Positions 1 through 17,801 of a DNA stretch of 64,000 bases are shown piece by piece. This DNA comes from a virus, in the IMG/VR virus record IMGVR_UViG_3300044712_000688, positions 72,299 through 136,298 of that record; one strand, 5' to 3'. The notes below the pieces were generated by a model. It was not told the origin of the DNA, did no database searches, and worked only from the letters and a program-made list of their open reading frames with translations. Every line of letters begins with the position of its first letter. Position 1 is the stretch's first letter. The position numbers were made by a program, and so were the translations under genes.

Positions 1-2
1 AA

Positions 3-1463
3 TATGCGTTTAATCTTGTGGCGTCTGTCGTATCACGTATCCGCCTTTACGCTGCTGCTGTAGATGACCCATCGGAAGCTCCAGTACCAGTTGATCTCTC
101 AAAGATTGTTGATCCTCAGCTGGCATCTGCTGCTCAGCGTGCGCTATCTCGTCTTGACTCAGCTTATGGTGGTCAGGCAGGTCTTCTAAAGGACGCAGCC
201 CTAAACTTGCAGGTCACTGGTGAGTGCTACCTAGTTCAGGTTCCAGAGCGTATTGGTTCACAGATTCCAGAGTCGTGGGATATCCGTTCCGTAGACGAAC
301 TACAGCTTGACTCACGTGGAAACTACACCATCAACCCGATTCGTGACGCTAGCGGTTCTTCTTCAGGTCAAGCTGGTAAGAATGCAATCCGTCTACCGTC
401 CGATGCGTTTATCGGACGTATCTGGAAAGCACACCCACGCTACTCAATGGAGTCTGACAGCTCGCTACGCGGACTTTTAGATCTCTGTGCGGAATTGTTG
501 CTACTTAACCGTACTTTCCGCGCTACGGCCCGTTCTCGCCTCAATGCGGGTGCTTTGTACCTGCCTGACGGTTTGTCTGTTGCAGCTAGCCCTGACCCAG
601 ACTACCCATACGACGAAGATGGCGAGTACAACGAGCTCTACAACACCGAAGAAGCTGCCGACGACTTTGAGGATCAGCTCATTGACGCGATGACCACTCC
701 GATCAAGGACGAGGACTCTGCTTCTGCTGTTGTTCCACTGATCATTCGTGGTCCGGCTGAACTTGGCGACAAGATCAAGCAGTTCAAGTTCGAGCGTTCA
801 TTCGACGCATCGCTAGTTGCTCGTGCTGATCGTGTACTAGAGCGCATCATGCAGGGTCTAGACGTCCCTAAAGACGTTGTGACGGGACTTGCGAACGTTA
901 AGTACTCCAACGCACTACAAATCGATGAAGCCCTCTACAAGGCGCACATCGAGCCTCTGATGCTACTTATTGCTGACGCACTAACTGTTGTGTACCTGCG
1001 TCCATACCTAATCGCCAACGGCTACGACAAAGATGAAGTAGACCGTATTCAGGTTTGGTATGACCCGAGCCAAGTTGCTACTCGTAATGACCGCGCAGCC
1101 GATGCTGACTCTGGTTTCGAAAAGATGGCAGTGTCTTTCAACACTTGGCGTCGTGCGCATGGCTTCTCTGAGGCAGATGCACCGAGTCCAGAAGAGTTGG
1201 CGCTACGTCTTGTTGTCGAGAAGGGTATGATCACTCCAGAGTTGACTCAGTCAATGCTAGAAGCGGTTGCACCAGAGCTTAAGGACCTGATCAATGCAGC
1301 CAGCCAAGCAAACTCTGTTGCTCCGATGACACCAGAGATTGAAAACATTCTCGAAGGTGGTCCAGGCACCCCTACCCCAGAGCCATCGGCTGAAACCGCT
1401 CCAGCCGAAGCACCACCTACATCAGCAGCCCCAACTACAGAACCTGAGGTACCAACACCATGA
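3..1463 (+). CDS. Portal protein (5'-truncated by window), cluster-B-like actinophage type
   Basis: Frame is open back to the window edge (YAFNLVAS...). Segments RTFRATARSRLNAGALYLP, VVPLIIRGP and QVWYDPSQV resemble actinophage portals. First gene of the head cluster, with a Pro/Glu-rich C-terminal tail. Confidence 0.8.
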   Translation, partial: YAFNLVASVVSRIRLYAAAVDDPSEAPVPVDLSKIVDPQLASAAQRALSRLDSAYGGQAGLLKDAALNLQVTGECYLVQVPERIGSQIPESWDIRSVDELQLDSRGNYTINPIRDASGSSSGQAGKNAIRLPSDAFIGRIWKAHPRYSMESDSSLRGLLDLCAELLLLNRTFRATARSRLNAGALYLPDGLSVAASPDPDYPYDEDGEYNELYNTEEAADDFEDQLIDAMTTPIKDEDSASAVVPLIIRGPAELGDKIKQFKFERSFDASLVARADRVLERIMQGLDVPKDVVTGLANVKYSNALQIDEALYKAHIEPLMLLIADALTVVYLRPYLIANGYDKDEVDRIQVWYDPSQVATRNDRAADADSGFEKMAVSFNTWRRAHGFSEADAPSPEELALRLVVEKGMITPELTQSMLEAVAPELKDLINAASQANSVAPMTPEIENILEGGPGTPTPEPSAETAPAEAPPTSAAPTTEPEVPTP

Positions 1464-1915
1464 CCTACGAAAAAAACGGTCTAGCAAAACATTTAGCACA
1501 CTTGCTAGCCGATGTAGTTACTCTTGGATTCCTGACTCAGGGATATCACTGGAATGTAAAGGGACTCAACTTCTCTCAGTTCCATGAGTTTTTTGCAGAG
1601 ATTTATGGAGATGTTGATAGCGCGATTGATCCGCTTGCTGAGAACATCCGCAAACTCGGGTATGACTCTCCTTACTTGCTCACTGACTTTGCTGAGCTGA
1701 CTTGTATTGTCCGCCAAGAGCGCGAACTCGGTGACGCGGTTTCAATGGTAGAGTCTCTGGCTCGTGTAAACCAGTCAGTGCTTATGTGCTACGAACAGGC
1801 CTTCACCATGGCCAGTGCTTGCAATGAGCAGGGAATTGCTGATTTTGTTGCTGGACGTATTGACATGCACCAGAAGTGGCAGTGGCAGTTGAAATCAACT
1901 CTAGGGGTTCAGTAA
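1460..1915 (+). CDS. dps: Dps / ferritin-like DNA-protection protein
   Basis: YHWNVKGLNFSQFHEFFAEIY...DPLAENIRKLG matches the Dps ferroxidase-centre signature. ATGA overlap with the portal stop. Confidence 0.9.
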   Translation: MTYEKNGLAKHLAHLLADVVTLGFLTQGYHWNVKGLNFSQFHEFFAEIYGDVDSAIDPLAENIRKLGYDSPYLLTDFAELTCIVRQERELGDAVSMVESLARVNQSVLMCYEQAFTMASACNEQGIADFVAGRIDMHQKWQWQLKSTLGVQ

Positions 1916-2598
1916 TGTCATACGTTGACGACATCTTCAAAAAGAATAATGGCGAGTACGTATTAGTTCCCGAAGAGGAAGAGCTAGCTAATGCTCTTCA
2001 GTTGATTGCCAACAAGTACGGCAAGTTCAACGATGACAACACCGGAATCTGGGCAGGATACACTCCTGCATCAGAGAACGAAGAGAACGCAGCCATTGGC
2101 GTCAAGTGTGGTAACTGCGTTTTCTTTAATGCACCTAACGGCTGCTCAATCATTGCAGCTGAAGTTGAAGATGGCGGGCTATGCCGTTTCGCAGTTCTGC
2201 CAGATGGTGCAGTGACCGCGACTGCCGGGTCTAAGCCAGCTCCCAAGAAAGACCGAATCAAGGGCTCTGACAAGAACAAAAAGGGATCGGCTGCCGAAGG
2301 CAAGTCTGTGAACTTCACCGAAGAGATTATTACAGCTCTAAAGAACAAACTAGAAACTCACAACAAGAAGGCACCAGACGGTAGGAAAGCTACTATGGCG
2401 GCCCTCAAGGCTGTGTATCGTCGTGGTGCAGGCGCATTCTCTACCTCACACCGACCAGACCAAAACCGCAACTCGTGGGCCATGGCTCGTGTAAATGCAT
2501 ATTTGCACTTACTACGCTCTGGTTCTCCTAAAAATTCAAAATATACAACTGACAACGACCTGCTTCCAAAAGCACATCCGAAGTCAACTAGAAAATAA
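1915..2598 (+). CDS. Two-domain protein: HiPIP-like 4-Cys domain plus basic C-terminal domain (DUF5824-like)
   Basis: Start placed at ATG 1915 (TAATG overlap with dps). C-x2-C-x8-C-x12-C in CGNCVFFNAPNGCSIIAAEVEDGGLC. C-terminal AVYRRGAGAFSTSHRP...WAMARVNAYL resembles a viral domain I recall as DUF5824. Confidence 0.6.
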   Translation: MSYVDDIFKKNNGEYVLVPEEEELANALQLIANKYGKFNDDNTGIWAGYTPASENEENAAIGVKCGNCVFFNAPNGCSIIAAEVEDGGLCRFAVLPDGAVTATAGSKPAPKKDRIKGSDKNKKGSAAEGKSVNFTEEIITALKNKLETHNKKAPDGRKATMAALKAVYRRGAGAFSTSHRPDQNRNSWAMARVNAYLHLLRSGSPKNSKYTTDNDLLPKAHPKSTRK

Positions 2599-2612
2599 AT
2601 TGTCCAGTAATA

Positions 2613-2621
2613 CGGTAAAAT
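2613..2621 (+). promoter_or_regulatory. GGTAAAAT-type (extended -10) promoter for the polyprotein gene
   Basis: CGGTAAAAT in an AT-rich intergenic gap. The same motif lies upstream of other structural genes. Confidence 0.6.
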
Positions 2622-2670
2622 TCTAGTATCATAGCTTAAGCAAATATTGCCCTGCTCAGGAAGGCCTAAA

Positions 2671-5600
2671 GTGAGCTCAGCATTCACTACTCTCATCAGC
2701 AAGATTGAAAACTACTACGCTGATCACGACTACACTACCGAGGATGCCGAGTATCTTTCTCGACTAGCCATCGTTGAGTACGCTAAGGAAAAGAACGCGC
2801 TGGTTGCTTCAGCTCGTCAGGTTCCAGAGACTTCGATTGACAACATCATCGAGACAGCAATCCACTTCAACCTAGATGCTGACCCGAGCGAGTGGATGCT
2901 ATTTGCAGCTAACGCTGTTGACAACGTCCTCAACTACTCCCACCACGGAATCATCGCCTCTGGCCTTGGCGAATACACCGACTTCCTACCTCTAGGACAC
3001 CCTTCACGTACTAACCGCGGTGCTATGACCGCATCTGCTCTATCTCAGTTGACTGCCCTCTGGGTGGCCGGAGATCCTCGCATTGCTTCGGAGCAGGCTC
3101 GTCTTGACGTTTACAGTGCATATGCGACCAAGCCTGGGTCAGTAGAAGCCGACTACGCTAGCGCAAAGCTAGGTGCTTTAGTTGCTGCTGGCTATGTCCC
3201 AGAAGACGTAGTACTTCCTGTTACTGCAGCTTTCAAGATGAGCTTCGCTATGCGTTCTGCAATGGCAAAGGCGCTGGCCGCTGTTCGTCGTCGTCACCGT
3301 GACGGTCGATTCGCGGAAGAGTTCGGACGTCTACGTGGGTTCTTCAAGCGCGGAGACGGAAGCATCTTCTCCGAGGATGGCCGTATTGTTGGTGCGCCAG
3401 CTGGAACTAATAACTTCCAGATTGAGATTAAAGACAGTCCAGAAATTCCTGATGGCATCTACACCATTGACGCTGCAAAGACTGCGCCAGTAAAAGCTAT
3501 TCTTTCTAAGCGTGCGCTTTCTAAGGTAAAGGGTCTTAAGGCTAACCGCTCCATCACAAACCCGAGCAAGGCAGATATTGCTTCTGCAATTCCTCTAGAA
3601 GACTTCCTAAAGACCCGTGCAGATGCTCCAGAGGGCTGGACCAAAAACGAAGACGGTTCTTTCACCTCTAAGACTGGTCAGACCGTAAAGGCAATTACCA
3701 CCCAGCCTAAGGGCGACTATATGGTTGAGGGCGCAGGCGAGAGCGGTGCCATTGACCCTAACACCCCGATGTTTGAGATTCGCGATAAGAATGGCGAGCT
3801 TCTAGGTGTTGGTCAGAACTGGGCAGGTCTTAACAAGATTGCTATGACCTATGACGCCCTAAGTGGCGAAGGTAGCAACACTCCAGACGAGCCAGGGCTA
3901 GACCAGAAGGCTGGTGGCTCTAATCTTGACTCGCTAGTTAAGGAGCTAAAAGACGCTTCGTCTAAGTGGATGGATGAACAGCGCTTCAGCCCAGACGAGT
4001 ATGACGAGGCCACGGATGCAATGCCAGACCCTGCCGTTACTGCTGACTTTATTCTCCAAGCTGAGAAGTCGGGGGACACCTCGGAACTCAAAGGGCTACT
4101 TGATGCTTATGAGGAAAGGCCATATGCTGAAGTCCTTAAGAAGGCAATTGAGCGTATTGATGGTGAAAAGGGTCTAGACCAGAAGCCGGGAGAAGGCAAG
4201 AACTGGTATGACAACACCATTGACTTTGACCACCTATCTGATCCAGCTAACTGGAAGGGCTTTAAGGAAGGTACCCATGAGTACGTCTCTCCAGATGGAA
4301 AGCTAGAGCTAACTTGGGAGCCAGACGGTGAGCCAGACATGGGCGATGGCGCTACAGATCTGTCTGGAATTAGTGTTACCTATGATGGTCAGCCAATTGG
4401 CTCTTACTTGGCAAGTTACCGTGATTTAGAAGACGGCGACATCGCAGATGGCCTAAAGGATCTTTTCAAGAAGGAAAGCTGGTTCAGCCCAGACAACCTT
4501 GTTAAGTTCGGCCAGTATGGCAGTGCAGAATACAACAGCCCTGACGGTGGTGGCGTATACGTTGAACCTAAGGGCTCTAAGTATGAAGTTACTAAGTCGA
4601 TTCCTCAGGGTATGATTGACGAAAACGTCGAACACTCCTATGAAAAAGTCGAGACCTACAACACCAAGGAAGAGGCCCACAAAGCGGCCGAAGACTTTGC
4701 AAGGTTGCTTGAGGACCCTTCGAAGAAGTATGACCTTCTATACGGGGACTGGAGTGACAGTGACGGTGGCTTTGATCAAGCTCCGGGCGAACCTACAAAA
4801 CTAAGCGCAGCTGGTAAGAAGATTGCCAAGGACCTAGGTGACCACAAGTTCTTCCTCGAAGAGGATGCAGACGGAAACTTTACTGGAGGAGAATCAACTT
4901 ACACTTCTCCAGATGGTCGTGTAGAAGTTAAGTACCGTGACGGCTCTTGGTTTGATGACGAGAAGGGCTACGTTGCTTGGGACGAGATGCAGGTCTCTGT
5001 AGACGGCAAGCCAGTTGACAGCGTACTTCGCAACAAGCGAGAGTCTTGGCCTGACTTTCTTGACCGTGTTGCTGCTATGGCAGAGAACGGTCTAGAGAAC
5101 CCTAACTATGCAGAAGAGAAGAAGGCTAAGCGCGAAGCCGACCGCAAGGCTCAGGAAGACTTCTATAACTCTCCAGAGCAGGTAGAAAAGCGTGCCCGCG
5201 CTAAGTGGGAAAAGGAGCAGGAAGAAGCTGCTCAGGCTCAGGCTCGTGATGCAGCTGACAAAGAAGGTCTACTTAAGAAGGTAGATGATCTAGCAAACAA
5301 GATCTTCAATGGTGAAAGCGACGACAGCATCTGGGTTGGCGACGAGGACGAAGAAGGCTTCCGCAACTGGGGCGTCTATAACGAAGATGGCGAAGAGGTT
5401 GCGACCGGAAACGCTGGACCAAACTGGGACGCTACTGATATTGCTTCCGAAATTCGTGATGGCGTTAACTCGTACCTAGACAAGAAGATGGAAGAAGAGG
5501 CTGACTTCCAGTCGGGCTTTGACCAGAAGGCTGGCGAAGACAAGGCGGAGGCACCAGCTAAGCCACTATCTGAAAAGCAGATGGAACCAGCTACTGACAA

Positions 5601-8094
5601 GCAGTACGCACTTCTTGAGGAGCTTAACTCAGAGCGTGATGGTATTGACCCAGTCACTCAGAAGGCTATTGACGATGCACTAGCCAACAAGAACCTGACA
5701 AAGGCTCAGATGGCGTCTCTGTTTGGCGACCTTACTAAGAAGCCTTTCAAGCCAAACGTAGACCCTACCAAGCCAACCGAGCGCCAGATCAACTCGCTTC
5801 AGGGCTACCTAACCACCAAAGAACTAACTCCTGACGAGATGAACGACATTCTTGCTCAGCTTGATGCGGGACTAGATCGCGACTCAATCGAAAAGATTAC
5901 TGCCAAGCTACGTCGTCGTCCAGACCGTCAGCCGACTGAAGGATTTGACCAAGCTGCCGGAATTGACAGCGAGTTCGATGACGAATACGACTCGGCTCAC
6001 GCTGATGTAGAGTCTGCAATTGACCAAGCTCTGGAGGACTACCAGAACTCGCTGGAGGCTGACGGACTATCTGAGGCAGAGATTTCTGACAAGATGGACG
6101 AGGCAAACCAGATTGCCGAGCGTCTGCGTGATTCGTCCAATGTTGCTGACGCACAGGGAGCCGAGCGTGACATTGCTAACGACACCACTGGTGGAATCTT
6201 TGACAAGATTGTTGAAGACATTCGCACTAACGCAGAGGCTCTAGACTCACGTAAACAGAAGAACCTTGCTGACGCTGATCAGGCGAAGGCAGACGAGGTT
6301 CAGGCTGCGATTGACGGAGACGACTCTAGCTTCCTCGAAGACATCGTAAATGACCCGAGCTACAGCGAGTATCAGTCTCAGATTGAGGATGCTCTCGCTG
6401 ACATCAACGCACGTAAGGGCGAAGAAGAGCCTGGATTTGATCAGGCTTCTGGTAAGACCATTGCTGATGCATGGGAAGGTCTAGACCAAGATACCAAGGA
6501 CAGCGTAGTCGAGTCAATGAGCGACTACCTACTTAAGTTACGTCAAACTAACCCAGACGAGTTCTACGACATGGTTTATGACGTAGCTGTAGATCACCCA
6601 GATGGCAAGCGTGTGATGCAAAAGCCTCAGAACTATGCCGAGGACTTCATTGACTTCTATGCTAATGAAGACCCAGAGCTGATTGCAGACATGCTTGAAA
6701 ATGCTGGAGTTGATCTTGACGGCTTTGACCAAGCTCCAGGCAAGACTCTATCTCCAAAGATGATGGAGCCAGCTACTGACGCTCAGTACAACTACTTGCA
6801 GAGTCTTTTCGACAGCAAGACTGGAATTGATGACGAGACTGCTCAGGCTGTTAAGGAAGCTCTTGACTCAAAGAACTTGACTAAGGCTCAGGCTGGTGGA
6901 TTCATCGGTAAGCTCCGTGACCTTGGTGACAAGGAGAACATGGGCCAGTACGGCAAGCCTTCTCAGAAGATGATTGACTCTGTAAAGCGTGACGTCTACG
7001 CTAAGGGCCTATCTGACGCAGACCGCGAAGAAATTCTTAAGGGTCTAGAGGACAAGTCAAAGGGCGATGTCTCATTTATTATCAGCATGCTGAAAGAAAT
7101 GGATGACGTCGAGGGTGGTATTCCAAAGTACATTGACAGCCTAGTTCAGAGTGGCGACGTAGATGCATTGAAGCGTCTACGTGCTGACGATCGCTATGGT
7201 CGTTGGTCAAGCCAGATGGATGACGCTCTAGCAAAGATGGACTCTGGTAATCAGGGTTTTGACCAAGCTCCCGGGGAGCGCTCTAGCAGCGACCGAGGTC
7301 AGATGAAGTCAGATCTATCTTCTCTAGCTGAAGAGGTAGAGAACAGCAATGAAATCGGCTACGCATTTCTAAACAAGAACTTCGTTGACGGTCTTGATCT
7401 GAATGACCCTGACGACGCTTACTACCTACACGCTGAGTTGATGGATGCATACAAAGCAATGCGTCCTAACTCAGAAGAAGGTAAGGCATTGGAAGCTCGT
7501 CTTAAGAAGGCTGCTGATGACCTGCTCAACAGCATCGAGTCAGACCTAGGCCCTATTGAAGCAGCTAAGCGCGACCCAGAAGACATGGGAAGCAGTTTTG
7601 AATTTGATAGTGCTGTAGATGACCTACCTGACTTCTTTGACTACTACTTCCCGACTGATGCATCATCGGATATGAGAAATGATCCAGATGGTGGTTCAGT
7701 TGGTGATGTTCGAGGTGGTGGCTGGGAAGCTTCTGTACGCTTCAACGAGGAAACTCAGAAGTGGGAAGCCGACATGACTTCGCCAGGATTTGCTTCCGAG
7801 AACTACAGCGAGTCTTTCGATGACCAAGATGAAGCAGCCGACTGGGTAGCAAATGAGCTTGATCGCCAGAACACTTCAACACGTAATCGTGACACTAATA
7901 TTCTTGCTGAAGATGGTCTTGCCGGACTCATCGAGGAGTATGGAGATGATCCAGCAGAACTAGCTGGCGTTCTAGAAGGTGTCATTGGATGGCTTCGAGG
8001 TACTAACCGTGGACAAGCACAGAAGATTGCAAGTACTCTAGATGACTATGTTACTCGCCTACGCGAGCAGCTGGCCAAAAACCCAAAAGCCTAG
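2671..8094 (+). CDS. Large acidic modular protein (probable internal virion polyprotein, ~1807 aa) with 8 G[FL]DQxxG linkers
   Basis: GTG 2671 follows AGGAAGG (2658-2664). Lies between portal and protease genes. Asp/Glu-rich modules are separated by GLDQKAG, GLDQKPG, GFDQAPG, GFDQKAG, GFDQAAG, GFDQASG, GFDQAPG, GFDQAPG. Contains DUF3072-like repeats (PATxxQ...LTKAQ). Confidence 0.75.
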   Translation: MSSAFTTLISKIENYYADHDYTTEDAEYLSRLAIVEYAKEKNALVASARQVPETSIDNIIETAIHFNLDADPSEWMLFAANAVDNVLNYSHHGIIASGLGEYTDFLPLGHPSRTNRGAMTASALSQLTALWVAGDPRIASEQARLDVYSAYATKPGSVEADYASAKLGALVAAGYVPEDVVLPVTAAFKMSFAMRSAMAKALAAVRRRHRDGRFAEEFGRLRGFFKRGDGSIFSEDGRIVGAPAGTNNFQIEIKDSPEIPDGIYTIDAAKTAPVKAILSKRALSKVKGLKANRSITNPSKADIASAIPLEDFLKTRADAPEGWTKNEDGSFTSKTGQTVKAITTQPKGDYMVEGAGESGAIDPNTPMFEIRDKNGELLGVGQNWAGLNKIAMTYDALSGEGSNTPDEPGLDQKAGGSNLDSLVKELKDASSKWMDEQRFSPDEYDEATDAMPDPAVTADFILQAEKSGDTSELKGLLDAYEERPYAEVLKKAIERIDGEKGLDQKPGEGKNWYDNTIDFDHLSDPANWKGFKEGTHEYVSPDGKLELTWEPDGEPDMGDGATDLSGISVTYDGQPIGSYLASYRDLEDGDIADGLKDLFKKESWFSPDNLVKFGQYGSAEYNSPDGGGVYVEPKGSKYEVTKSIPQGMIDENVEHSYEKVETYNTKEEAHKAAEDFARLLEDPSKKYDLLYGDWSDSDGGFDQAPGEPTKLSAAGKKIAKDLGDHKFFLEEDADGNFTGGESTYTSPDGRVEVKYRDGSWFDDEKGYVAWDEMQVSVDGKPVDSVLRNKRESWPDFLDRVAAMAENGLENPNYAEEKKAKREADRKAQEDFYNSPEQVEKRARAKWEKEQEEAAQAQARDAADKEGLLKKVDDLANKIFNGESDDSIWVGDEDEEGFRNWGVYNEDGEEVATGNAGPNWDATDIASEIRDGVNSYLDKKMEEEADFQSGFDQKAGEDKAEAPAKPLSEKQMEPATDKQYALLEELNSERDGIDPVTQKAIDDALANKNLTKAQMASLFGDLTKKPFKPNVDPTKPTERQINSLQGYLTTKELTPDEMNDILAQLDAGLDRDSIEKITAKLRRRPDRQPTEGFDQAAGIDSEFDDEYDSAHADVESAIDQALEDYQNSLEADGLSEAEISDKMDEANQIAERLRDSSNVADAQGAERDIANDTTGGIFDKIVEDIRTNAEALDSRKQKNLADADQAKADEVQAAIDGDDSSFLEDIVNDPSYSEYQSQIEDALADINARKGEEEPGFDQASGKTIADAWEGLDQDTKDSVVESMSDYLLKLRQTNPDEFYDMVYDVAVDHPDGKRVMQKPQNYAEDFIDFYANEDPELIADMLENAGVDLDGFDQAPGKTLSPKMMEPATDAQYNYLQSLFDSKTGIDDETAQAVKEALDSKNLTKAQAGGFIGKLRDLGDKENMGQYGKPSQKMIDSVKRDVYAKGLSDADREEILKGLEDKSKGDVSFIISMLKEMDDVEGGIPKYIDSLVQSGDVDALKRLRADDRYGRWSSQMDDALAKMDSGNQGFDQAPGERSSSDRGQMKSDLSSLAEEVENSNEIGYAFLNKNFVDGLDLNDPDDAYYLHAELMDAYKAMRPNSEEGKALEARLKKAADDLLNSIESDLGPIEAAKRDPEDMGSSFEFDSAVDDLPDFFDYYFPTDASSDMRNDPDGGSVGDVRGGGWEASVRFNEETQKWEADMTSPGFASENYSESFDDQDEAADWVANELDRQNTSTRNRDTNILAEDGLAGLIEEYGDDPAELAGVLEGVIGWLRGTNRGQAQKIASTLDDYVTRLREQLAKNPKA

Positions 8095-8111
8095 CCCCCA
8101 ATGAGGGGGCT
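8082..8111 (+). other. Programmed -1 ribosomal frameshift cassette
   Basis: In-frame X_XXY_YYZ heptamer C_CCA_AAA (8082-8088), 4-nt spacer, hairpin AGCCCCC-AATGA-GGGGGCT (8093-8111). The zero frame stops at TAG 8092-8094; the -1 frame is open from 8046 to 10394. Confidence 0.8.
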
Positions 8112-10394
8112 GAGCCTGGATTAGATCAGGACGCTCCAGATTTAGACCGAATCAAGAGCATCCTAGATAAGTACCGTACTAAGCCAACTGCCACAGAGAC
8201 TGTACGTCCATCTGTAGCCGAAGGCGAGCCGGGATCTAGAACTAATCCACTCGAACTTACTCAGGAGCAACTTGATGAAAAGCTTGCCTCTGTAACCGAG
8301 ACTAACAAGGCTGCGGCTTCCAGTGTTTTGTCTAGCGTACTAGACAAACTGCGCAATCCTAGAAGCATCAAAGATTGGGTACAAAAGTGGAAGAGAGACG
8401 GTAACCGACCTCTCCCAGTCAACCCTGCAAGTGAGACCCACTACACCGGCCCCAACCTATTGGTCTTGGAAAACGCAGCTTCAGAAAACGGATTCAGCGA
8501 CCCTAGATGGATGAGTGCGTCTCAGGTTGCTCAGGCTGGAGGAACAATCCCAGCTGGAACCAAGGGTACTCAGATTCTTGTACCTAGCTTCTTTGTAACC
8601 ACCCGTGACGGCAAGGTTGTCGAGCACTTTGAGTTTAGAAAAGTCACTGTTTTTAATGGTGATCAGATTCAAGGAATCGCTCCATACAACGCTGACGAAA
8701 ACAAGTCCTACACCGCAAAAGAGGCTGTAGATATCATCCTTGACAGAATGCGTGAAGCAGCCGAGCTTCGAGGTGTCAAGGCTCCTGAAATGTTTGGTAT
8801 TCAGCTAGATGAAAACCAGAATCCACGCTGGATGCCTAACTATCGCGGAGAAGTTGATAGGATCCGACTACCACTCCGAGCAAACTTTGATAGCGATGAG
8901 TCTTGGTTTAATGCCATTACCCACGAACTAATTCACAGCACGGGTAGAACCAACCGACTTAACCGAGAAGAAGTTAAGAAGGCACTAGATGGAAACAGCA
9001 ATGCCTACGCAGAAGAAGAGCTAACTGCCGAGCTAGGCTCCATGCTTCTATCAAAGATGTTTGGTCTTGACGCTGACCAAGATAACTCAATCAGCTACTT
9101 GCTCACTCACATTAGAAACCTAGATGGCATTGACGCGGATAAGGCCGTGACTGATGCCATGACTAGGGCACAGCTAGCTGCCGACTACCTGCTTGGTAAC
9201 GATGTTCTTCCTCAGTGGAACCCGCTGAAGACTAAGGTTGCCCCGACCCCACAGTCGGTAAGAATGGCGTCTACTACTCCAGAAGACTCGAGCCTGAACC
9301 CAGACACTAATCCTGATTCAGTTGATGCTCCTCTAGTAGGACTTGACCAAGCCCCGGGCAAGAAGCCTTTCAACCGCGCTAAGTCCGTGTCTGACAGCAA
9401 GGATGCTAAAGAGCGAGTTCTATCTGGACTACTGGAAAAGATTAAAGAAGGTAAGGCTCCTTGGCGTAAGCCATTTAAGGATGACGCTAACTATGCTGGT
9501 GCATTCGTTCCGCGTAACCCAGCATCGAAGCACATTTACAGCGGTATTAACTCGATTGTTCTTAAGCTGTACCAGCAGTTGTCTGGGTATGACGATCCTC
9601 GCTGGATGACCTACAACCAAGCCACAGAATTAGGTGGTCAGGTTCGTAAGGGCGAGAAAGGTGTACAAATCCTTGTTCCTTATAAGAGGGTCAAGAAAGA
9701 GAAGGATTCCTCAACTGGAGAAGAGAAGGTAACTGGTAGTTACGTAACATTTGGTGTAAAGACCGTGTTCAATGTTGAGCAGATTGATGGTCTAAACCTG
9801 CCTACCGTCAAGGCCGAGGCTGGAGAGCCTAAGACCCCGCTCGAGGCACAAGACTTCATTCTTGAGCGCTACCAAAAGTCAATGGAGGCCAAGGGTCTAA
9901 AGGCTCCTGAAATTTCATATACATATGTAGGTCAGTACGGTAGCCACTCATCTTCTCCAAACTGGGACCCAAGTTTCGACATGATTACCCTCCCAACCAA
10001 GGAGCAGTTCAATAGCCCAGAGGATATGTTTGACACCATTGCCCATGAGCTTGCTCACTCGACCGGACACAGGGATCGCCTTGACCGCACCGAGCTAACC
10101 AAGAACTATGGAACAAGCAATGCAGCCCGAGGTGAGGAAGAGCTTATTGCAGAAATCTCTGCAGCAATCCTAGCCAGCATGTTCGGTGTTAACAGCGACT
10201 TTGACAATACCGCGGCCTATGTAAAGAGTTGGCTAAAAGCACTACAGGATAACCCTGATATGGTTATGAAAGCCTCTTCTGAAGCTCAGAAGGTAGTAGA
10301 CTATTTGCTAGGTATGGATCTGGGAGACTGGAGCCCTATCGAGGGTTACCGAGCATCAAACAAATCTAAATCAGATGGAGACTCAGATGAGTAA
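8088..10394 (+). CDS. ardC: -1 frame extension of the polyprotein: two tandem ArdC-like units (ssDNA-binding N-domain plus zincin/MPTase)
   Basis: Unit 1: NPASETHYTGPN, DPRWMS, VFNGDQI, HELIH (8922-8936), EEELTAELGS. Unit 2: APWRKPF, YSGIN, DPRWMTYNQ, GGQVRKGEKG, VFNVEQI, HELAH (10044-10058), EEELIAEISA. No Shine-Dalgarno before the first possible start (TTG 8328). Confidence 0.85.
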   Translation, partial: SLAPNEGAEPGLDQDAPDLDRIKSILDKYRTKPTATETVRPSVAEGEPGSRTNPLELTQEQLDEKLASVTETNKAAASSVLSSVLDKLRNPRSIKDWVQKWKRDGNRPLPVNPASETHYTGPNLLVLENAASENGFSDPRWMSASQVAQAGGTIPAGTKGTQILVPSFFVTTRDGKVVEHFEFRKVTVFNGDQIQGIAPYNADENKSYTAKEAVDIILDRMREAAELRGVKAPEMFGIQLDENQNPRWMPNYRGEVDRIRLPLRANFDSDESWFNAITHELIHSTGRTNRLNREEVKKALDGNSNAYAEEELTAELGSMLLSKMFGLDADQDNSISYLLTHIRNLDGIDADKAVTDAMTRAQLAADYLLGNDVLPQWNPLKTKVAPTPQSVRMASTTPEDSSLNPDTNPDSVDAPLVGLDQAPGKKPFNRAKSVSDSKDAKERVLSGLLEKIKEGKAPWRKPFKDDANYAGAFVPRNPASKHIYSGINSIVLKLYQQLSGYDDPRWMTYNQATELGGQVRKGEKGVQILVPYKRVKKEKDSSTGEEKVTGSYVTFGVKTVFNVEQIDGLNLPTVKAEAGEPKTPLEAQDFILERYQKSMEAKGLKAPEISYTYVGQYGSHSSSPNWDPSFDMITLPTKEQFNSPEDMFDTIAHELAHSTGHRDRLDRTELTKNYGTSNAARGEEELIAEISAAILASMFGVNSDFDNTAAYVKSWLKALQDNPDMVMKASSEAQKVVDYLLGMDLGDWSPIEGYRASNKSKSDGDSDE

Positions 10395-10554
10395 AGAAAA
10401 GCCTGACATGCTAGGCGGATATACTGAGAATGATCCTGAGTATTGGACTCTTTTAGCCAAAATTATTGGTAATCCAGTACCAGATTACGAAGATGACAGT
10501 GAATTCGTTGACGAAAACGGCGTTGTTATCAAAGATATCACACCTGATAAATAA
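10387..10554 (+). CDS. Small acidic hypothetical protein (55 aa), not in the ORF track
   Basis: ATG 10387 overlaps the ArdC end, with GGAG 6 nt upstream. MSKEKPDMLGGYTENDPEYWTLLAKIIGNPVPDYEDDSEFVDENGVVIKDITPDK. Confidence 0.65.
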   Translation: MSKEKPDMLGGYTENDPEYWTLLAKIIGNPVPDYEDDSEFVDENGVVIKDITPDK

Positions 10555-10572
10555 ATCACTTTGATAAATAAC

Positions 10573-10581
10573 GGGTAAAAT
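10573..10581 (+). promoter_or_regulatory. GGTAAAAT-type promoter
   Basis: GGGTAAAAT about 35 nt upstream of ATG 10616. Confidence 0.6.
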
Positions 10582-10615
10582 TAGTCTAGGGTTTCTGACT
10601 TTATAGGATTGATGG

Positions 10616-12730
10616 ATGAACCACCTAATCGGCCGCTCTGGCGAACTAGCATTCTATGCTAACAATACACACGGTGTAGTGATCAACACTGCCGTAGGAG
10701 CTGTCGTCGCTAGCGGTGTAGCCCTCGACATTTTCGCAGAAAACAAATGGGAAACCTCGGGTACCCCCCTTACTCCGGCTGAAAAACTGCTTGCCGATAA
10801 GGTTCTAGCCAACCTAGAAGAAGAAGCCATCGTTGCTTCTGCAGACAGAATGTACACCATTCCTAAGTCTGTAGAGGCAGAGGCAAAGAAAGCTTTAGAG
10901 TGGCGTAAGGAAGAAGGCCGAGGAGGGACTCCTGTTGGCCTAAACACTGCTCGCACGCTTGCTAAGGGCGGTCAGATCGGTATCCGCAAGATTCGCCACA
11001 TTGCTAAGTACTTCCCTCGTCACGAAGTTGATAAGAAGGGTAAAGGCTGGAAGCCTGGCCAAGATAACTTCCCATCTAACGGTCGTATCGCATGGGCACT
11101 TTGGGGTGGAGACGCCGCTTGGCGTTGGGCACGTGCAATCGTTGAGCGCGAAGATAAGAAAGAGAAGTCAGTCACTGCTGGTGGTGGCTACACTGTCTCT
11201 AACTATGTAGATCAGGTCAACTACCCTAAGCAGAACGAAGAGCTAAACCCGTTCAAGTACGCTCATGAGCTTGATGAAAACTACGGCCCAGAATTCTTGG
11301 CTCGAGTTTGCCTAGATGGTTCTGGTATTGACCGACTTTACATGATAGACATAGACGGCTCGGTCTACGTCTGGGACGACGCTTGCTGGGACAACCTAGG
11401 TCACGTTGATGGTGACATCTGGACATACGACCGTATGTTGGATGATGTCTATGATCTAGAGGAAAAGTCTCACGTAATTATTGACCCTCAGTCTGCTCTT
11501 ATGATTGCAGCTCGTATGGCTGTAGACCCATACTGCAAGACTTCTGTCTTTGATCTAGATGCTGATGAAGCTTCTTTAATGGAGGCTGGTATTGGTGGCG
11601 AAGACTGGGAGTTTATTGACCAAGTAATTACTGCCGCAGCCCCTACCAACCAAGACGGCAACTACACTCCAGAAGAGCGTTCAGCAAACGCTGGTAACCA
11701 GCCTCGAGACGCTATGGGCCAGTTTGCTAAGGTAGGCCAGAAGGTAGCTATCGGTGGAGACGCTGCTAGAGGTTCTGGCACAATCCGCGACATTGATGGT
11801 GCTACTGGTATTGTTACCGTTGACCTTGCTGATGGACGAACTGTAAAGGTTGGTTCTAAGTACCTAGTCCCTGCAGAAAAGGCAAGTAGTCGTCCAAACT
11901 CTTTGCGTGTTGATGATGCAAATAAAGCTCCTATGGACTTCTCTGGGATCATTGGCGAGCCTCGTACTCCTCAGAACAGCAAGAAGGCCCACCTTCCGGG
12001 AACTCTACCAAAGCTAGATGTCAATGAATTTATCAACAACTACGCTTCTTGGGTGGAGAAGGAACGCTACAAGCCAAGGAGCGCAGCTGACAAGGCTGCG
12101 GTCAAGAAGCGTTGGCCAAATGCCAAGTTCACAGATGCATCTATCATTGCCTCTGCCGAAGAGAAGATTCTCACTCCTTCAACTTCTGACGTAACCCCTA
12201 GGTACCTAGCTATCGTTGCTCAGGAAGACCCTGAAGCAATGGTTGATCTAGTAGCAATTATTCCTAAGACCGCTACTTCCACTTCTCCAATTGCCTACAA
12301 GCGTGAGGGAGATAAGTGGGTTCAGGATGACCAGACCCTAGCAGACCTTCGTTCAGCAACTAAGCCTCCAGTAGTAGAGCTAGATAAAGAATCCCTAAAG
12401 GATGTTCTATCTCAGATGTCTGAGAACAAGCCTACAGAAGAGACTGCTCCAGAAGCGGTTATGGCTAGCTTGCTTACTGTCCTCGATGCTTTTGTGGCAG
12501 CAGGTGGAGCTGATAAGAACCGTGGCAACGCAGAAAAACTTCGTCGCTACTGGGTATATGGAGAAGGTGCTGCCAAGATCCGCTGGGGCCAGCCTGGAGA
12601 CTGGAAGCGTTGTGTACGCTACCTAGCTAAGCACCTAGGCCCACGTGCAAAGGGATACTGCCAACTTCGTCACAAGGATGCCCTTGGCTACTACACCGCA
12701 ACCCATGCGAAAAGAGACCGTAATGGCTAA
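10616..12730 (+). CDS. Multidomain head-morphogenesis / internal virion protein
   Basis: Contains GTPVGLNTARTLAKG...IAWALWGGDAAWRWA (a domain typical of phage head-region proteins), QPRDAMGQF, an SH3/KOW-like segment and a C-terminal RYW...KIRWGQPGDWKRC domain. Directly precedes the protease gene. Confidence 0.6.
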   Translation: MNHLIGRSGELAFYANNTHGVVINTAVGAVVASGVALDIFAENKWETSGTPLTPAEKLLADKVLANLEEEAIVASADRMYTIPKSVEAEAKKALEWRKEEGRGGTPVGLNTARTLAKGGQIGIRKIRHIAKYFPRHEVDKKGKGWKPGQDNFPSNGRIAWALWGGDAAWRWARAIVEREDKKEKSVTAGGGYTVSNYVDQVNYPKQNEELNPFKYAHELDENYGPEFLARVCLDGSGIDRLYMIDIDGSVYVWDDACWDNLGHVDGDIWTYDRMLDDVYDLEEKSHVIIDPQSALMIAARMAVDPYCKTSVFDLDADEASLMEAGIGGEDWEFIDQVITAAAPTNQDGNYTPEERSANAGNQPRDAMGQFAKVGQKVAIGGDAARGSGTIRDIDGATGIVTVDLADGRTVKVGSKYLVPAEKASSRPNSLRVDDANKAPMDFSGIIGEPRTPQNSKKAHLPGTLPKLDVNEFINNYASWVEKERYKPRSAADKAAVKKRWPNAKFTDASIIASAEEKILTPSTSDVTPRYLAIVAQEDPEAMVDLVAIIPKTATSTSPIAYKREGDKWVQDDQTLADLRSATKPPVVELDKESLKDVLSQMSENKPTEETAPEAVMASLLTVLDAFVAAGGADKNRGNAEKLRRYWVYGEGAAKIRWGQPGDWKRCVRYLAKHLGPRAKGYCQLRHKDALGYYTATHAKRDRNG

Positions 12731-15563
12731 CGAACAAGAATTCCTTATGGAAGAGATTTTGACCAAGAATTACGGTGTTCCTACGGAGATCACCGATGAA
12801 GATCTATTGATGCCTATCGAAGACATCATGTTTGAAGATGATGACATCTACGATGACTCTTGGGAGCCAGACGAGGAAACTTGCCGTCAGCTAGCCGAGC
12901 TAGCGGATTGCGATGACGAAGAATATGCGTCCCTTATTGCTGCTGGTGGCCTAGACCGTAACCGTGGTAACGCAGAGGAGCTTCGCCAGTACTGGACTCG
13001 CGGTAAGGGCGCTGCCAAGATTCGCTGGGGTACCCCTGGCGATTGGACTCGTTGCGTTCGTCAGCTTTCAAAGTACATGGGCCCACGCGCTAAGGGCTAT
13101 TGCCAGCTACGCCACAAGGACGCGACTGGTATCTACACTGGTAGCCGATTCAACCCGGGCCGTCGTAATGAAACCTCTAGCCTATATGCAAGCGAAGCTG
13201 AGTTTACCCAGTCGGTTATCGCTCAGGCAGAACTTACTGCTAGAGCGAACCACGCTAGAGAGCGTTTCGGTCTAGTTGCAAGTGCTGGTATGCAACACGG
13301 TGCAAAGTTCAACATTCCTCTACTGATCCCAGAAGACTTGGAGTCAGGAGATGGCCGTAAGTTTGTGAAGGACTCTCTATCAGTTCGAGAGCTTCCACTT
13401 CCACTTCTATGGCAGATCAAGACCGGCGACGGTCACATGGGGTCTGTGGTGGTTGGACGTATTGATTACGTAGAAAGAACCGAAAACGGTATTGGAAATG
13501 CCTATGGTGTTTTTGATACAGGAGCATATGGTCAAGAAGCAGAGCGTCTAGTACGTAACGGATTTATCCGTGGTGTTTCTGCAGATCTTGACCAGTTCGA
13601 AGCAGAAGAAGATAAGACTGAAAATGCTGAGGACACCGAAGACGTAGGTAAGAAGAAGTTAACCATAAATCACGCCCGTGTAATGGCTGCTACAATTGTA
13701 GCTAAGCCTGCATTCCAAGAATGCACTATCTCTATTGAAGAAAAACCAGCGGGAGACCAGGAGGATGAAGTGATTCCAGTTGACGGAATATATGAAGAAT
13801 CCGTCGAACAAGAATTCTCTGGCACATCGCTAGTTGCTTCAGGATTCATTGACGGCGAGATTCCTATGACACCACCAGCAGAGTGGTTCAAGGATCCTAA
13901 GCTAACTAAGCCAACCCCAATCACCGTTGACCCTTCTGGTCGTATCTACGGTCACATTGCAGCTTGGCACGTAAACCACATTGGCATGCCTCGCTCTACC
14001 CGCCCACCTCGCTCAAAGAGCAAGTACGCATACTTCCACACTGGTGTAGTCCGCTGTGCTGACGGAACTGACATGCCAGTGGGACAGTTAACTCTTGCTG
14101 GTGGACACGCACCTCTAACTGCTAACGCTGCTTCTGCAGCTAAGCACTACGACGACACCGCTTCTGCGATTGCAGATGTTCACATGGGTGAAGACGAGTA
14201 TGGAATCTGGTGTGCTGGCTCGGTACGTCCAGACGCAACCGAGATGCAGATTCGCGCACTTCGCGCTTCTGCTCCTTCTGGCGACTGGCGTCCAATTAAT
14301 GGCTCGCTCGAGCTTGTTGCAGTTTGTCAGGTAAACGTTCCAGGCTTCCCGATTGCTCGCGCAATGGTTGCTTCAGGTAAGGTTATGGCTCTAGTTGCAG
14401 CTGGTGCAAGCATGATGGCAATCATGAAGAGTCAGCACGTAGCAACCCTATCTGAGCGTGCATACAACCTAGCTGAACTTTCAGCTAGCGCCCCAGACCT
14501 ACGTTCTCGTGTAAAGTCTGCAAAGAAGGCTGTAAAGAAGCAGGCTCTAGTTGCTGCTGCTGCTAAGGCAGAAGAACTAAAGACCCGTGCTCTAGTTGCT
14601 GCTGCCGTTGCCGAGCTAGCTAAGTTCTCTGACGAAGAGAGAATGAAGCTTGCTGACAAGGGTCAGGCTCTACCAGATGGTTCGTTCCCAGTGCGCAACG
14701 AACAGGATCTCCGTAATGCTATCCAAGCATATGGACGTGCAAAGCGAGAGAACCGAGTAGCTGTCCGCAAGCACATTATCAAGCGAGCTAAGGCTCTAGG
14801 TAAGGCATACCTGATTCCAGATGAGTGGAAGTCAGCTGGTTCTACCGAGGCCGCGACAATCGTTGCTTCGATGCGTTCTCGTATCGCAGAATTTGCAGAA
14901 GCCCCGATCAAGGAGATTTCTGACGCAGACCTAAAGAAGCTGAAGGATGTAAAGGCCGAAGCTGACAAGCAGACTGCAGAAGAGATCAAGCTCGCTGAGG
15001 ATATTCGTACTGGTAAGACTACTGCCAAGGAAGTCTATGACAAAGAAGGTCGTAGCAAGTACACCCCAAAAACCCAACCCCGTGACGCTAAAGGTAAGTA
15101 CCGCAAGGTTCTTGCTCGACTAAAGCAGAACCTAGGTGTGGCGGGGCTTCAGAAGGCTTTGGAAAAGGTAGAAAAGGCAGAAAACCTAGAGTTTGCTGGC
15201 GACTACGTAAACTCAGCCAAGGCTAGTAGCGAGCTACTAGGAATGATTGATCGTCTAGATACTAAGGCCCTAAACCCTAAGTCTCTAGAAAACGTCCGCT
15301 CAACAGCGGCCGAACTAGGCAAGACAATTGCCAACCTTCCATTGCCATTCGGCAAGGAAGCTCAGAAAGTTAGATTTAGCGATCTACCTGCCGGACTAAA
15401 GACACTCATCGATGGGATGATTTCTCGAGTCGAAGCAAAGATCGGTAAAGAGGACGCAGATATTGCAACCGCAAATCTGAAGTCCTTCATGTCTGGTGCA
15501 GATGTCTATTCTCAGGCTGAAATTCAGTCAGAGATGAACACCCTGCTCCGACTCCTTACCTAA
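12723..15563 (+). CDS. Capsid maturation protease, multidomain fusion
   Basis: ATG 12723 overlaps the previous stop. SGDGRKF...LPLPLLWQ...GHMGSVVVGRID and GFIRGVSADLD resemble actinophage prohead proteases. Also carries GRIYGHIAAW, a DUF6582-like domain (LPDGSFPVRNEQDLRNAIQAYGRA) and a copy of the WGxPGDW domain. Confidence 0.8.
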   Translation: MANEQEFLMEEILTKNYGVPTEITDEDLLMPIEDIMFEDDDIYDDSWEPDEETCRQLAELADCDDEEYASLIAAGGLDRNRGNAEELRQYWTRGKGAAKIRWGTPGDWTRCVRQLSKYMGPRAKGYCQLRHKDATGIYTGSRFNPGRRNETSSLYASEAEFTQSVIAQAELTARANHARERFGLVASAGMQHGAKFNIPLLIPEDLESGDGRKFVKDSLSVRELPLPLLWQIKTGDGHMGSVVVGRIDYVERTENGIGNAYGVFDTGAYGQEAERLVRNGFIRGVSADLDQFEAEEDKTENAEDTEDVGKKKLTINHARVMAATIVAKPAFQECTISIEEKPAGDQEDEVIPVDGIYEESVEQEFSGTSLVASGFIDGEIPMTPPAEWFKDPKLTKPTPITVDPSGRIYGHIAAWHVNHIGMPRSTRPPRSKSKYAYFHTGVVRCADGTDMPVGQLTLAGGHAPLTANAASAAKHYDDTASAIADVHMGEDEYGIWCAGSVRPDATEMQIRALRASAPSGDWRPINGSLELVAVCQVNVPGFPIARAMVASGKVMALVAAGASMMAIMKSQHVATLSERAYNLAELSASAPDLRSRVKSAKKAVKKQALVAAAAKAEELKTRALVAAAVAELAKFSDEERMKLADKGQALPDGSFPVRNEQDLRNAIQAYGRAKRENRVAVRKHIIKRAKALGKAYLIPDEWKSAGSTEAATIVASMRSRIAEFAEAPIKEISDADLKKLKDVKAEADKQTAEEIKLAEDIRTGKTTAKEVYDKEGRSKYTPKTQPRDAKGKYRKVLARLKQNLGVAGLQKALEKVEKAENLEFAGDYVNSAKASSELLGMIDRLDTKALNPKSLENVRSTAAELGKTIANLPLPFGKEAQKVRFSDLPAGLKTLIDGMISRVEAKIGKEDADIATANLKSFMSGADVYSQAEIQSEMNTLLRLLT

Positions 15564-15569
15564 AAAATA

Positions 15570-15578
15570 AGGTACAAT
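15570..15578 (+). promoter_or_regulatory. Promoter for the major capsid gene
   Basis: AGGTACAAT, a variant of GGTAAAAT, just after the protease stop. Confidence 0.55.
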
Positions 15579-15586
15579 TAGTGATA

Positions 15587-15662
15587 GGTGGAGCGCCTCG
15601 CACATTCCGTGCTGAGTCCCTCAGCCTTGACTGTTCACCATGAATGGGATCTTCCTATTCAT
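15587..15662 (+). promoter_or_regulatory. Structured 5' leader of the major capsid mRNA
   Basis: GGTGGA/TTCACC closing stem, GCAC-ATTCC-GTGC and GCTGAG-TCC-CTCAGC hairpins, then a 10-bp hairpin at 15640-15662, ahead of SD AGGAGG at 15680. Confidence 0.45.
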
Positions 15663-15689
15663 AAAACCAATACTGGCCTAGGAGGTACA

Positions 15690-17711: not shown

Positions 17712-17737
17712 TAGTTCGATAAGGCAGTTATCGTTGC

Positions 17738-17761
17738 GGGAGGGTCCTTCGGGGCCCTCCC
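17738..17761 (+). terminator. Strong hairpin after the capsid gene
   Basis: GGGAGGGTCC-TTCG-GGGCCCTCCC with a cUUCGg tetraloop; no U-tract. Confidence 0.6.
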
Positions 17762-17801
17762 AATACGAGTAAAAATATAGACTTTATTTAGAGGATTTTA
17801 A

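Follow-up and report, generated by a model that had tools for sequence, protein, structure and literature searches.

A repeated G[F/L]DQ peptide at the predicted domain junctions of a giant, frameshift-extended head-module protein of an uncultured phage, and its possible role as a processing site

Background

Polyvalent proteins of phages and conjugative elements join many (2-15) unrelated domains in one polypeptide, and processing by their MPTase domains has been proposed, with no site defined (Iyer, Burroughs, Anand, de Souza, Aravind 2017, PMC5512222); the strings 'linker', 'interdomain', 'boundar' and 'frameshift' each have 0 occurrences in that paper. In literature searches I found no described delimiter or cleavage motif in polyvalent proteins. 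Here I describe a candidate, the short peptide G[F/L]DQ, which recurs throughout the product of one giant gene among the head genes of an uncultured phage. The DNA analysed, called the window below, comprises the 64,000 nucleotides at positions 72,299 to 136,298 of IMG/VR record IMGVR_UViG_3300044712_000688, which make up the final 64 kb of a phage genome represented by a single contig of 136,298 bp, and coordinates refer to this window.

Several other systems are relevant for comparison. In retroviral Gag/Gag-Pol, a minority -1 frameshift product carries the aspartic protease, the sites lie between domains, and processing is tied to particle maturation. The secreted MARTX toxins are strings of effectors whose linkers are cut after delivery, after Leu, by their own InsP6-activated cysteine protease. 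At the polyprotein junctions of picornaviruses and coronaviruses, 3C-like sites consist of Gln followed by G, S or A, with the cut directly after the Gln. Encapsulin cargo-loading peptides and the T4 capsid-targeting sequence are cargo tags, terminal on the cargo. Prohead proteases such as T4 gp21 (L/I-x-E) and SPN3US gp245 (A-x-E) process head-internal proteins (PMC10052503). On balance I think it probable that the giant protein described here is a capsid-loaded polyvalent protein that is cut at its delimiters, with its zincins ahead of the prohead protease as the enzyme.

Results and discussion

The giant open reading frame (ORF) of the head module, here ORF1, is followed by an extension in the -1 frame (Table 1). 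A six-frame regular expression scan for G[FL]DQ gave nine matches in the frame of ORF1 and two in the -1 frame; the one remaining match in the window, at 3633, is off-frame, and in the six frames of the whole genome just 3 matches fall outside the reading frames of this gene. No other ORF of the genome contains the motif, and neither do the head genes of four related viral contigs (L001-L004). In 20,000 residue shuffles it occurred 0.077 times on average and 3 times at most, against 11 observed copies in 2,584 residues. The copies use all four Gly codons, GAC and GAT, CAA and CAG, and CTA, TTA and CTT, and as the codons differ between copies, the constraint acts on the peptide; G[FL]DQ is a peptide-level feature exclusive to the giant gene. 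It is internal, being repeated 10 times in one polypeptide as a delimiter, and is found at neither the N- nor the C-terminus of ORF1 or the extension. An earlier, sequence-only reading of this DNA had listed all 11 coordinates and peptides exactly as the scan found them, and its claim that the motif is kept at the protein level agrees with the varying codons and with the presence of the motif in all homologues discussed below.

The positions of the motif were compared with two AlphaFold2 models, one of residues 377-1576 (model 1, 1,200 residues, on a 23-sequence alignment) and one of the frameshift extension (model 2). In model 1, 754 residues have a predicted local distance difference test score (pLDDT) of 70 or more, and confident domains are separated by low-confidence coil. 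At least 8 separately folded modules are predicted after the N-terminal domain (N-domain), with 2 ArdC units besides. All 8 canonical copies covered by model 1 lie within inter-domain coil of pLDDT<50, with exactly one copy per long linker; low-confidence residues make up 19.5% of the model, and by my arithmetic 8/8 would occur by chance with a probability of ~2e-6. The copies at 8118 and 9339 are likewise in coil in model 2, before and between the ArdC units. Taken over both models, 10/10 canonical copies are in predicted disordered linkers at domain junctions, so that in these models every module boundary is shown as an exposed, disordered linker with one delimiter copy. The sequence-only reading had asked whether domain boundaries coincide with the motif, and had counted copies within folded cores as evidence against a processing site; the boundaries do coincide for the ten canonical copies, none of which is in a core. 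The weaker copy that it had listed at 6478, GLDQDTK, did not hold up: it was discarded as a delimiter because it sits inside a confidently predicted helix and is missing from close homologues, and is regarded as a chance or in-domain copy.

The same reading had called most of the flanking modules unrelated, which is broadly right, with no relationship found between modules 5 and 6. It does not apply to modules 4 and 7, which are paralogues (E 7e-21), nor to the two ArdC units, which are paralogues of each other, and modules 2 and 3 are weakly related (3e-6).

A search over 5.8 billion proteins yielded 23 homologues of 1,640-2,200 aa with 45-100% identity, which were aligned with MAFFT. Each of the 23 carries 6-9 motif copies, so the lack of conservation in homologues that the sequence-only reading had named as refuting its idea was not seen, and at four sites the alignment has no variation in the G, D and Q columns. 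In sequence logos, drawn from 59 and from 115 sites, the information extends from about -3 to +6 and the signal has two dialects: the near clade uses [ED][ED]x-G-[F>L]-D-Q-[A/K]-[A/P]-G, the farther clade [DE]-A-P-G-[L>F]-D-Q-D-A-P. Combined, this is a 7-10-residue signal [ED][ED]x-G-[F/L]-D-Q-[A/K/D]-[A/P]-[G/P].

Cutting the 23 proteins at the motif and clustering the pieces separates constant parts, i.e. the N-terminal module (~405 aa) and a C-terminal pair (180 + 278 aa), from a variable middle in which whole pieces are gained, lost or exchanged between homologues. In pairwise global alignments, 8 of the 17 indels of at least 40 aa start and end no more than 2 residues from the motif, and 12 of the 17 have one end within 10 residues of it, against 17% at random placement. 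Whole modules are thus gained and lost from motif to motif in these 8 large indels, as the earlier idea of swaps exactly at the motif implied. Such indels, together with a partial DNA microhomology (GGN TTY/CTN GAY CAR), could also be explained by a passive joint, a linker cap or recombination scar that travels with the modules and has no dedicated reader, with only motif-to-motif exchanges being viable. I regard this as very unlikely, as there is free variation at synonymous positions but none at four residues over 174 sites, and as positions +4 to +6 switch together between the clades (A/K-A/P-G vs D-A-P), for which a scar would need selection by a common partner; the AlphaFold2 model moreover has no structured cap.

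The protein belongs to a wider family. An exhaustive HMMER scan with the N-terminal 408 residues identified 252 representative proteins of 1.4-5.3 thousand aa, in nearly all of which the N-domain matches at the N-terminus; the domain itself has no match in Pfam (13 members included), PHROGs, a PDB profile search or the ESM Atlas. Proteins with an N-domain identity of roughly at least 36% carry 2-6 motif copies per 1,000 residues, and more distant members essentially none. Lineages write the motif in their own dialects, GF[AD]Q[EAK][AP]G (12-17 copies), GF[ND]QGER, E[EQ]GLGQ, DVDL[DN]Q and PDL[DN]Q[DN]V, with SLDQDV or TGFAQKPG between ArdC units, and Phe/Leu and Gln are fixed across the dialects of the motif-bearing group. 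A short exposed peptide that changes in concert across a lineage, but keeps F/L and Q, speaks for a single reader in each lineage that co-evolves with it. The distant lineages have other delimiters, [VIE]-Q-E-M-A-[TS], VEEMA[ST], [IL]DKMA and PIVD[KR], and in two of their members (P0173, P0185) these directly precede RNase T, UvrD helicase, DnaG primase and ArdC domains. As a primase, a helicase and an exonuclease are expected to act separately, their position behind a delimiter argues for release.

The Gln is the most conserved residue across the dialects of the clade and lies in exposed linkers, where it might serve as a substrate for covalent chemistry, either deamidation or Gln-Lys crosslinking of the transglutaminase type, with capsid or host proteins as partners. 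This I hold to be highly improbable: Pfam and PHROG searches detected no transglutaminase-like gene near the locus, other lineages of the family use delimiters without Gln, and crosslinking would be expected to hinder ejection. A hub-binding motif of the beta-clamp or SSB-tail type was set aside as well, there being no resemblance, and a Pup-like C-terminal Gln after cleavage and a ClpS N-degron from a cut between G and F/L were set aside as unsupported.

As to the cargo of the wider family, distant N-domain members (P0173, P0185, P0216, P0192, P0194; L007, L009, L014) contain an RNase T exonuclease, a UvrD helicase, a DnaG primase, an ArdC-zincin or several GNAT acetyltransferases, and the same phages encode, after the first giant ORF, a second one of 2,500-3,460 aa or more.

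The last two canonical copies lie beyond the stop codon of ORF1, whose 3' end reads AAC CCA AAA GCC TAG and holds a slippery heptamer, followed by a putative stimulatory hairpin. Heptamer, stop and stem are identical in the window and in L001-L004 (the cassette of L001 is at 14062-14092), down to 58% protein identity; the hairpin loop varies among the 5 loci, and the stem of L002 is one pair longer. The zero-frame ORFs of the clade all end in ...PKA, a -1-frame ORF with two HExxH motifs follows in each related contig of sufficient length, and the slip site is precisely where the -1 frame opens in L001 and L002. In the window the first start codon of the extension, TTG at 8328, is 240 nt downstream, and coding conservation begins at the slip site. 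The heptamer, a downstream structure, a startless open -1 frame and conservation of the cassette were all found, as expected from the sequence of a programmed -1 frameshift. In three more distant relatives (P0155, P0158 and P0164, with 2,848, 3,915 and 4,167 aa) the N-domain and both ArdC-zincin units are encoded in one frame, and the conserved slip cassette and these in-frame fusions together argue that the predicted 2,574-aa fusion is a genuine product. The recurrence of the motif across the frameshift, already noticed in the sequence-only reading, accordingly concerns a fusion that is conserved in 5 loci and found in-frame in three relatives.

The extension matches PF08401 at 6e-48 and PF18818 at 1e-47, with two units of each, and both zincin units retain HExxH and the downstream Glu. 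The ArdC genes of other phages are standalone and located outside head modules, and so give no guidance here. Relatives of the ArdC ORF (P0027, P0049, P0052, P0057, P0059 and others) have extra ParB-N (PF02195), ADP-ribosyltransferase (ART, PF03496) and Tc-38 single-stranded DNA (ssDNA)-binding modules, and the extension itself would therefore be a variable effector train.

A second motif, hydrophobic-[VIT]-A-[SA]-[GA], is present in 4 copies in the N-domain, 5 in the 704-aa protein encoded after the extension, 7 in the 972-aa protein that holds the prohead protease and 1 in the capsid protein. These 17 copies (window 2797-16750) compare with about 0.6 expected, shuffles giving 0.1-0.25 per protein. 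The second motif occurs 0 times in the 2,168 aa of train and extension, and for G[FL]DQ the pattern is reversed. The delimiter had been described earlier as distinct from a probable prohead-protease motif near the N-terminus, and the confinement of the second motif to the N-domain and other head proteins bears this out. The assemblin-type protease site is (V/L/I)-x-A-S, cut between A and S; the second motif resembles it and is therefore a natural candidate for the prohead protease, of which it probably is the site. With two mutually exclusive motifs and two protease families in the head module, it is most economical to assign the reading of G[FL]DQ to the zincins. These enzymes usually prefer a hydrophobic residue at P1', and a scissile bond between G and F/L would fit this S1' preference, as a bond after the Q would fit a Gln-specific P1 pocket.

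Judged from sequence, the giant protein has the marks of a processed polyprotein, with a conserved site at 10/10 junctions and encoded zincins with HExxH...E intact. In the processing that I favour, the conserved ~408-aa N-domain would target the polyprotein to the procapsid; in the predicted models eight small acidic zero-frame modules follow it, and the -1 frameshift adds the two ArdC units (ssDNA-binding plus zincin) to a fraction of the molecules. The delimiter would be the proteolytic processing site at which the train, still in the head or once injected, is converted to about ten individual proteins. The cutting enzyme would not be the prohead protease, and, as the weaker part of this proposal, the protein's own MPTase-PolyVal zincins would be the first candidates, at a dose that may be set by the frameshift as in retroviral Gag-Pol. 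The modules might act as effectors in this phage; relatives do carry ADP-ribosyltransferase and ParB modules. A bolder version, which I put forward with little confidence, is a Gag/Gag-Pol-like phage strategy, in which a frameshift-dosed, packaged zincin would free about ten injected proteins from a head-internal polyprotein by cutting it at G[F/L]DQ. The underlying grammar, with its lineage dialects, would extend across more than 250 representative N-domain giant proteins, some bearing ready-made primase, helicase and exonuclease, and the sought-after natural substrate of ArdC-type MPTase domains would be revealed.

Several observations weigh against this reading. The association of zincin and motif is imperfect in both directions across the family: six members have an in-frame ArdC-zincin but lack a hydrophobic-x-Q motif, the motif between the units has been lost in one clade of ArdC proteins with two units, and in the QEMA-type lineage no MPTase was found in either giant ORF over the parts examined. 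For the ArdC protease of R388 the substrate is not known, and the protease activity is dispensable for ArdC function in conjugation (PMC7213743). There is no cultured relative in the GenBank phage collection, where megablast of 20 kb gave no match and where the only tblastn match was the metagenome-assembled Actinomycetia phage DSL-LC01, with 32% identity over the N-terminal 270 residues; its 3,290-aa homologue contains neither G[FL]DQ nor an obvious delimiter. In addition, a motif-like SIDQESG (window 16170-16190, capsid protein aa 195-201) is located in the very acidic, low-complexity N-extension of the capsid protein and is partly conserved, as SIDQESG in L001 and STNQEDG in L004.

This last element keeps alive the alternative that the delimiters are cut by the prohead protease in the 972-aa neighbour, as by T4 gp21 or SPN3US gp245. 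That enzyme is encoded two genes downstream and is universal to these phages, delimiters also occur in lineages without a detectable zincin, and motif-based cutting of head proteins at multiple sites is established (PMC10052503). However, neither here nor in L001-L004 does G[FL]DQ occur in the portal, the protease protein or the mature capsid protein, whereas the protease protein, the capsid protein and the N-domain are enriched in the other motif, which the train lacks. One enzyme reading two unrelated motifs is less parsimonious, and I consider this alternative unlikely.

Two further observations count against the reading that I favour. AlphaFold2 docked neither linker of the extension into a zincin cleft, both remaining at pLDDT<50, and no naturally split forms of the train were found, the search returning only contig-truncated C-terminal fragments. 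Both would suit an uncleaved docking or packaging tag, a linear motif that binds the capsid inner surface, the scaffold/core or the N-domain and staples the train at every joint. A short conserved peptide exposed in disordered linkers is what such a tag would look like, its dialects would suit co-evolution with any binding partner, and the gene is among the head genes. I nevertheless find a tag doubtful. Each domain boundary has a single copy, neither clustered nor placed as a terminal tag, and known cargo tags are terminal; a more obvious element for targeting is the N-domain, which recurs in more than 250 representative giant proteins. The equivalent delimiters of distant relatives precede a primase, a helicase and an exonuclease, which suggests release, and an uncut, folded train of 283 kDa would presumably be hard to eject. 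Cutting at the delimiters, with the zincins as first candidates, remains the explanation that I prefer.

The features are listed in Table 1. According to ORF calls and Pfam/PHROG matches, the head module occupies window bases 1-18,000. ORF1 has no Pfam or PHROG match, and none of its modules fits a known enzyme family. A Foldseek search with the 1,200-residue model against PDB and BFVD gave weak Whirly/PUR-like matches (E 0.03) and no useful viral match. Modules 2 and 3 (window 4171-5514) are beta-rich, with a weak Foldseek likeness to Whirly/PUR/MRP ssDNA- or RNA-binding folds (E 0.03, probability 0.9), and modules 4 and 7 share a helix-hairpin signature, 'EPATD-QY-L...LTKAQ'. The portal gene and the giant ORF are separated, at window 1460-2598, by two genes, one ferritin/Dps-like (PF00210, 5e-16) and one for DUF5824; in DSL-LC01 the corresponding module also contains DUF5824, together with a gene annotated as HiPIP. 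The 704-aa and 972-aa ORFs (window 10616-15563) correspond to a single ORF of 1,500-1,519 aa in the relatives L001 and L004. In the split gene found here a domain of ~75 aa (phrog_6439) is duplicated, one copy ending the first ORF and the other lying near the start of the second.

Table 1. Positions of the giant gene, its delimiters and frameshift elements, and neighbouring head genes in the window
Feature	Position	Strand	Details
Portal	3-1463		phrog_776, 1e-88; upstream of giant ORF
Giant head-module ORF (ORF1)	2671..8094	+	GTG start, AGGAAGG Shine-Dalgarno upstream, TAG stop; 1,807 aa, pI 4.35, 199 kDa; P0002 has 100% identity, 1,807 aa
N-terminal ~408-aa domain, presumed head-targeting anchor	2671..3894	+	4 copies of hydrophobic-[VIT]-A-[SA]-[GA]
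Delimiter 1, GLDQKAG	3895..3915	+	N-domain/module 1 junction; model 1 residues 41-47 in low-pLDDT segment 11-48
Delimiter 2, GLDQKPG	4171..4191	+	model 1 residues 133-139 in segment 130-141; G, Q invariant in 23 sequences
Delimiter 3, GFDQAPG	4768..4788	+	model 1 residues 332-338 in segment 330-343; G, D, Q invariant
Delimiter 4, GFDQKAG	5515..5535	+	model 1 residues 581-587 in segment 577-601
Delimiter 5, GFDQAAG	5941..5961	+	model 1 residues 723-729 in segment 718-733
Delimiter 6, GFDQASG	6433..6453	+	model 1 residues 887-893 in segment 881-894
GLDQDTK, chance or in-domain copy	6478..6498	+	model 1 residues 902-908 in helices H896-902/H905-925, high pLDDT; absent here in P0003-P0009
Delimiter 7, GFDQAPG	6721..6741	+	model 1 residues 983-989 in segment 982-994; G, D, Q invariant
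Delimiter 8, GFDQAPG	7255..7275	+	model 1 residues 1161-1167 in segment 1158-1181; G, Q invariant
Slippery heptamer C_CCA_AAA	8082-8088	+	X_XXY_YYZ, in register with zero frame
Hairpin, putative stimulator	8092..8112	+	8-bp GC-rich stem TAGCCCCC/GGGGGCTG, 5-nt loop, 3 nt after heptamer
-1-frame extension	8088..10394	+	768 aa; fusion of 2,574 aa (283 kDa)
Delimiter 9, GLDQDAP	8118..8138	+	10 residues past shift site; extension-model residues 12-18 in low-pLDDT segment 1-20
ArdC unit 1 (ArdcN + MPTase-PolyVal zincin)	8139..9338	+	HELIH at 8922-8936, downstream EEEL-x-AE
Delimiter 10, GLDQAPG	9339..9359	+	between two ArdC units; extension-model residues 419-425 in low-pLDDT segment 396-439
ArdC unit 2 (ArdcN + MPTase-PolyVal)	9360..10391	+	HELAH at 10044-10058
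704-aa protein	after -1-frame extension		5 copies of hydrophobic-[VIT]-A-[SA]-[GA]
972-aa protein holding head-maturation (prohead) protease	two genes downstream		phrog_18402, 4e-62
707-aa major head protein	downstream of prohead protease		phrog_777

Comparison with known systems

Polyvalent proteins are widespread in phages and plasmids and have been assumed since 2017 to be cut by their own zincins, the cut site and the substrate never having been defined. A delimiter that is exclusive to the polyprotein, lies at every predicted boundary and shifts by lineage turns the assumption of self-cutting into a testable site, and with such delimiters as a rule, thousands of giant phage ORFs that lack annotation could be divided into functional modules. 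The locus also adds a second clean example of a conserved -1 frameshift that is not in a tail-chaperone gene, and its N-domain would unite giant proteins of uncultured freshwater phages in a large new family of head-anchored cargo.

The giant protein has the features by which polyvalent proteins are recognised, i.e. many domains, the hallmark ArdC-N and MPTase-PolyVal domains and a place among the virion genes of a portal-terminase phage, and its relatives add ART and ParB modules. From the gene position and the precedents in PMC5512222, it would be packaged in the head and delivered to the host. It differs from the described proteins in having a conserved delimiter peptide with lineage dialects at every boundary, in an ArdC-zincin pair joined by a programmed -1 frameshift, and in an N-terminal anchor that is not MuF and belongs to no known family; its zero-frame modules match no known enzyme. 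The delimiter grammar with its dialects, the frameshift-attached ArdC-zincin pair and the anchor are new here.

As with T4 and SPN3US, a short motif would be read repeatedly in a head-internal protein and cargo released inside the capsid. There, however, one motif is common to capsid protein, portal, protease and cargo, whereas G[FL]DQ is confined to one gene, and the known cases mostly remove N-terminal propeptides and do not cut trains of modules. Encapsulin cargo-loading peptides and the T4 capsid-targeting sequence differ in being terminal, one tag per cargo, whereas the delimiter is internal and repeated 10 times. It resembles 3C-like sites in its invariant Gln within a site of 6-8 residues at each junction, but has a hydrophobic residue at -2 from the Gln, and some dialects of the wider family lack the Gln; no chymotrypsin-like cysteine protease was detectable here in Pfam/PHROG searches. 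With MARTX toxins it shares unrelated domains, short linkers and a protease domain in the same polypeptide; there is no homology, and MARTX toxins are secreted, not virion-borne.

The likeness to Gag/Gag-Pol, finally, is one of logic and not of homology: a structural polyprotein, a frameshifted minority with a candidate protease, and short sites between the domains. The candidate protease here differs in being a zincin fused to an ssDNA-binding anti-restriction domain, and the cargo would probably be injected effectors rather than the building blocks of a capsid.

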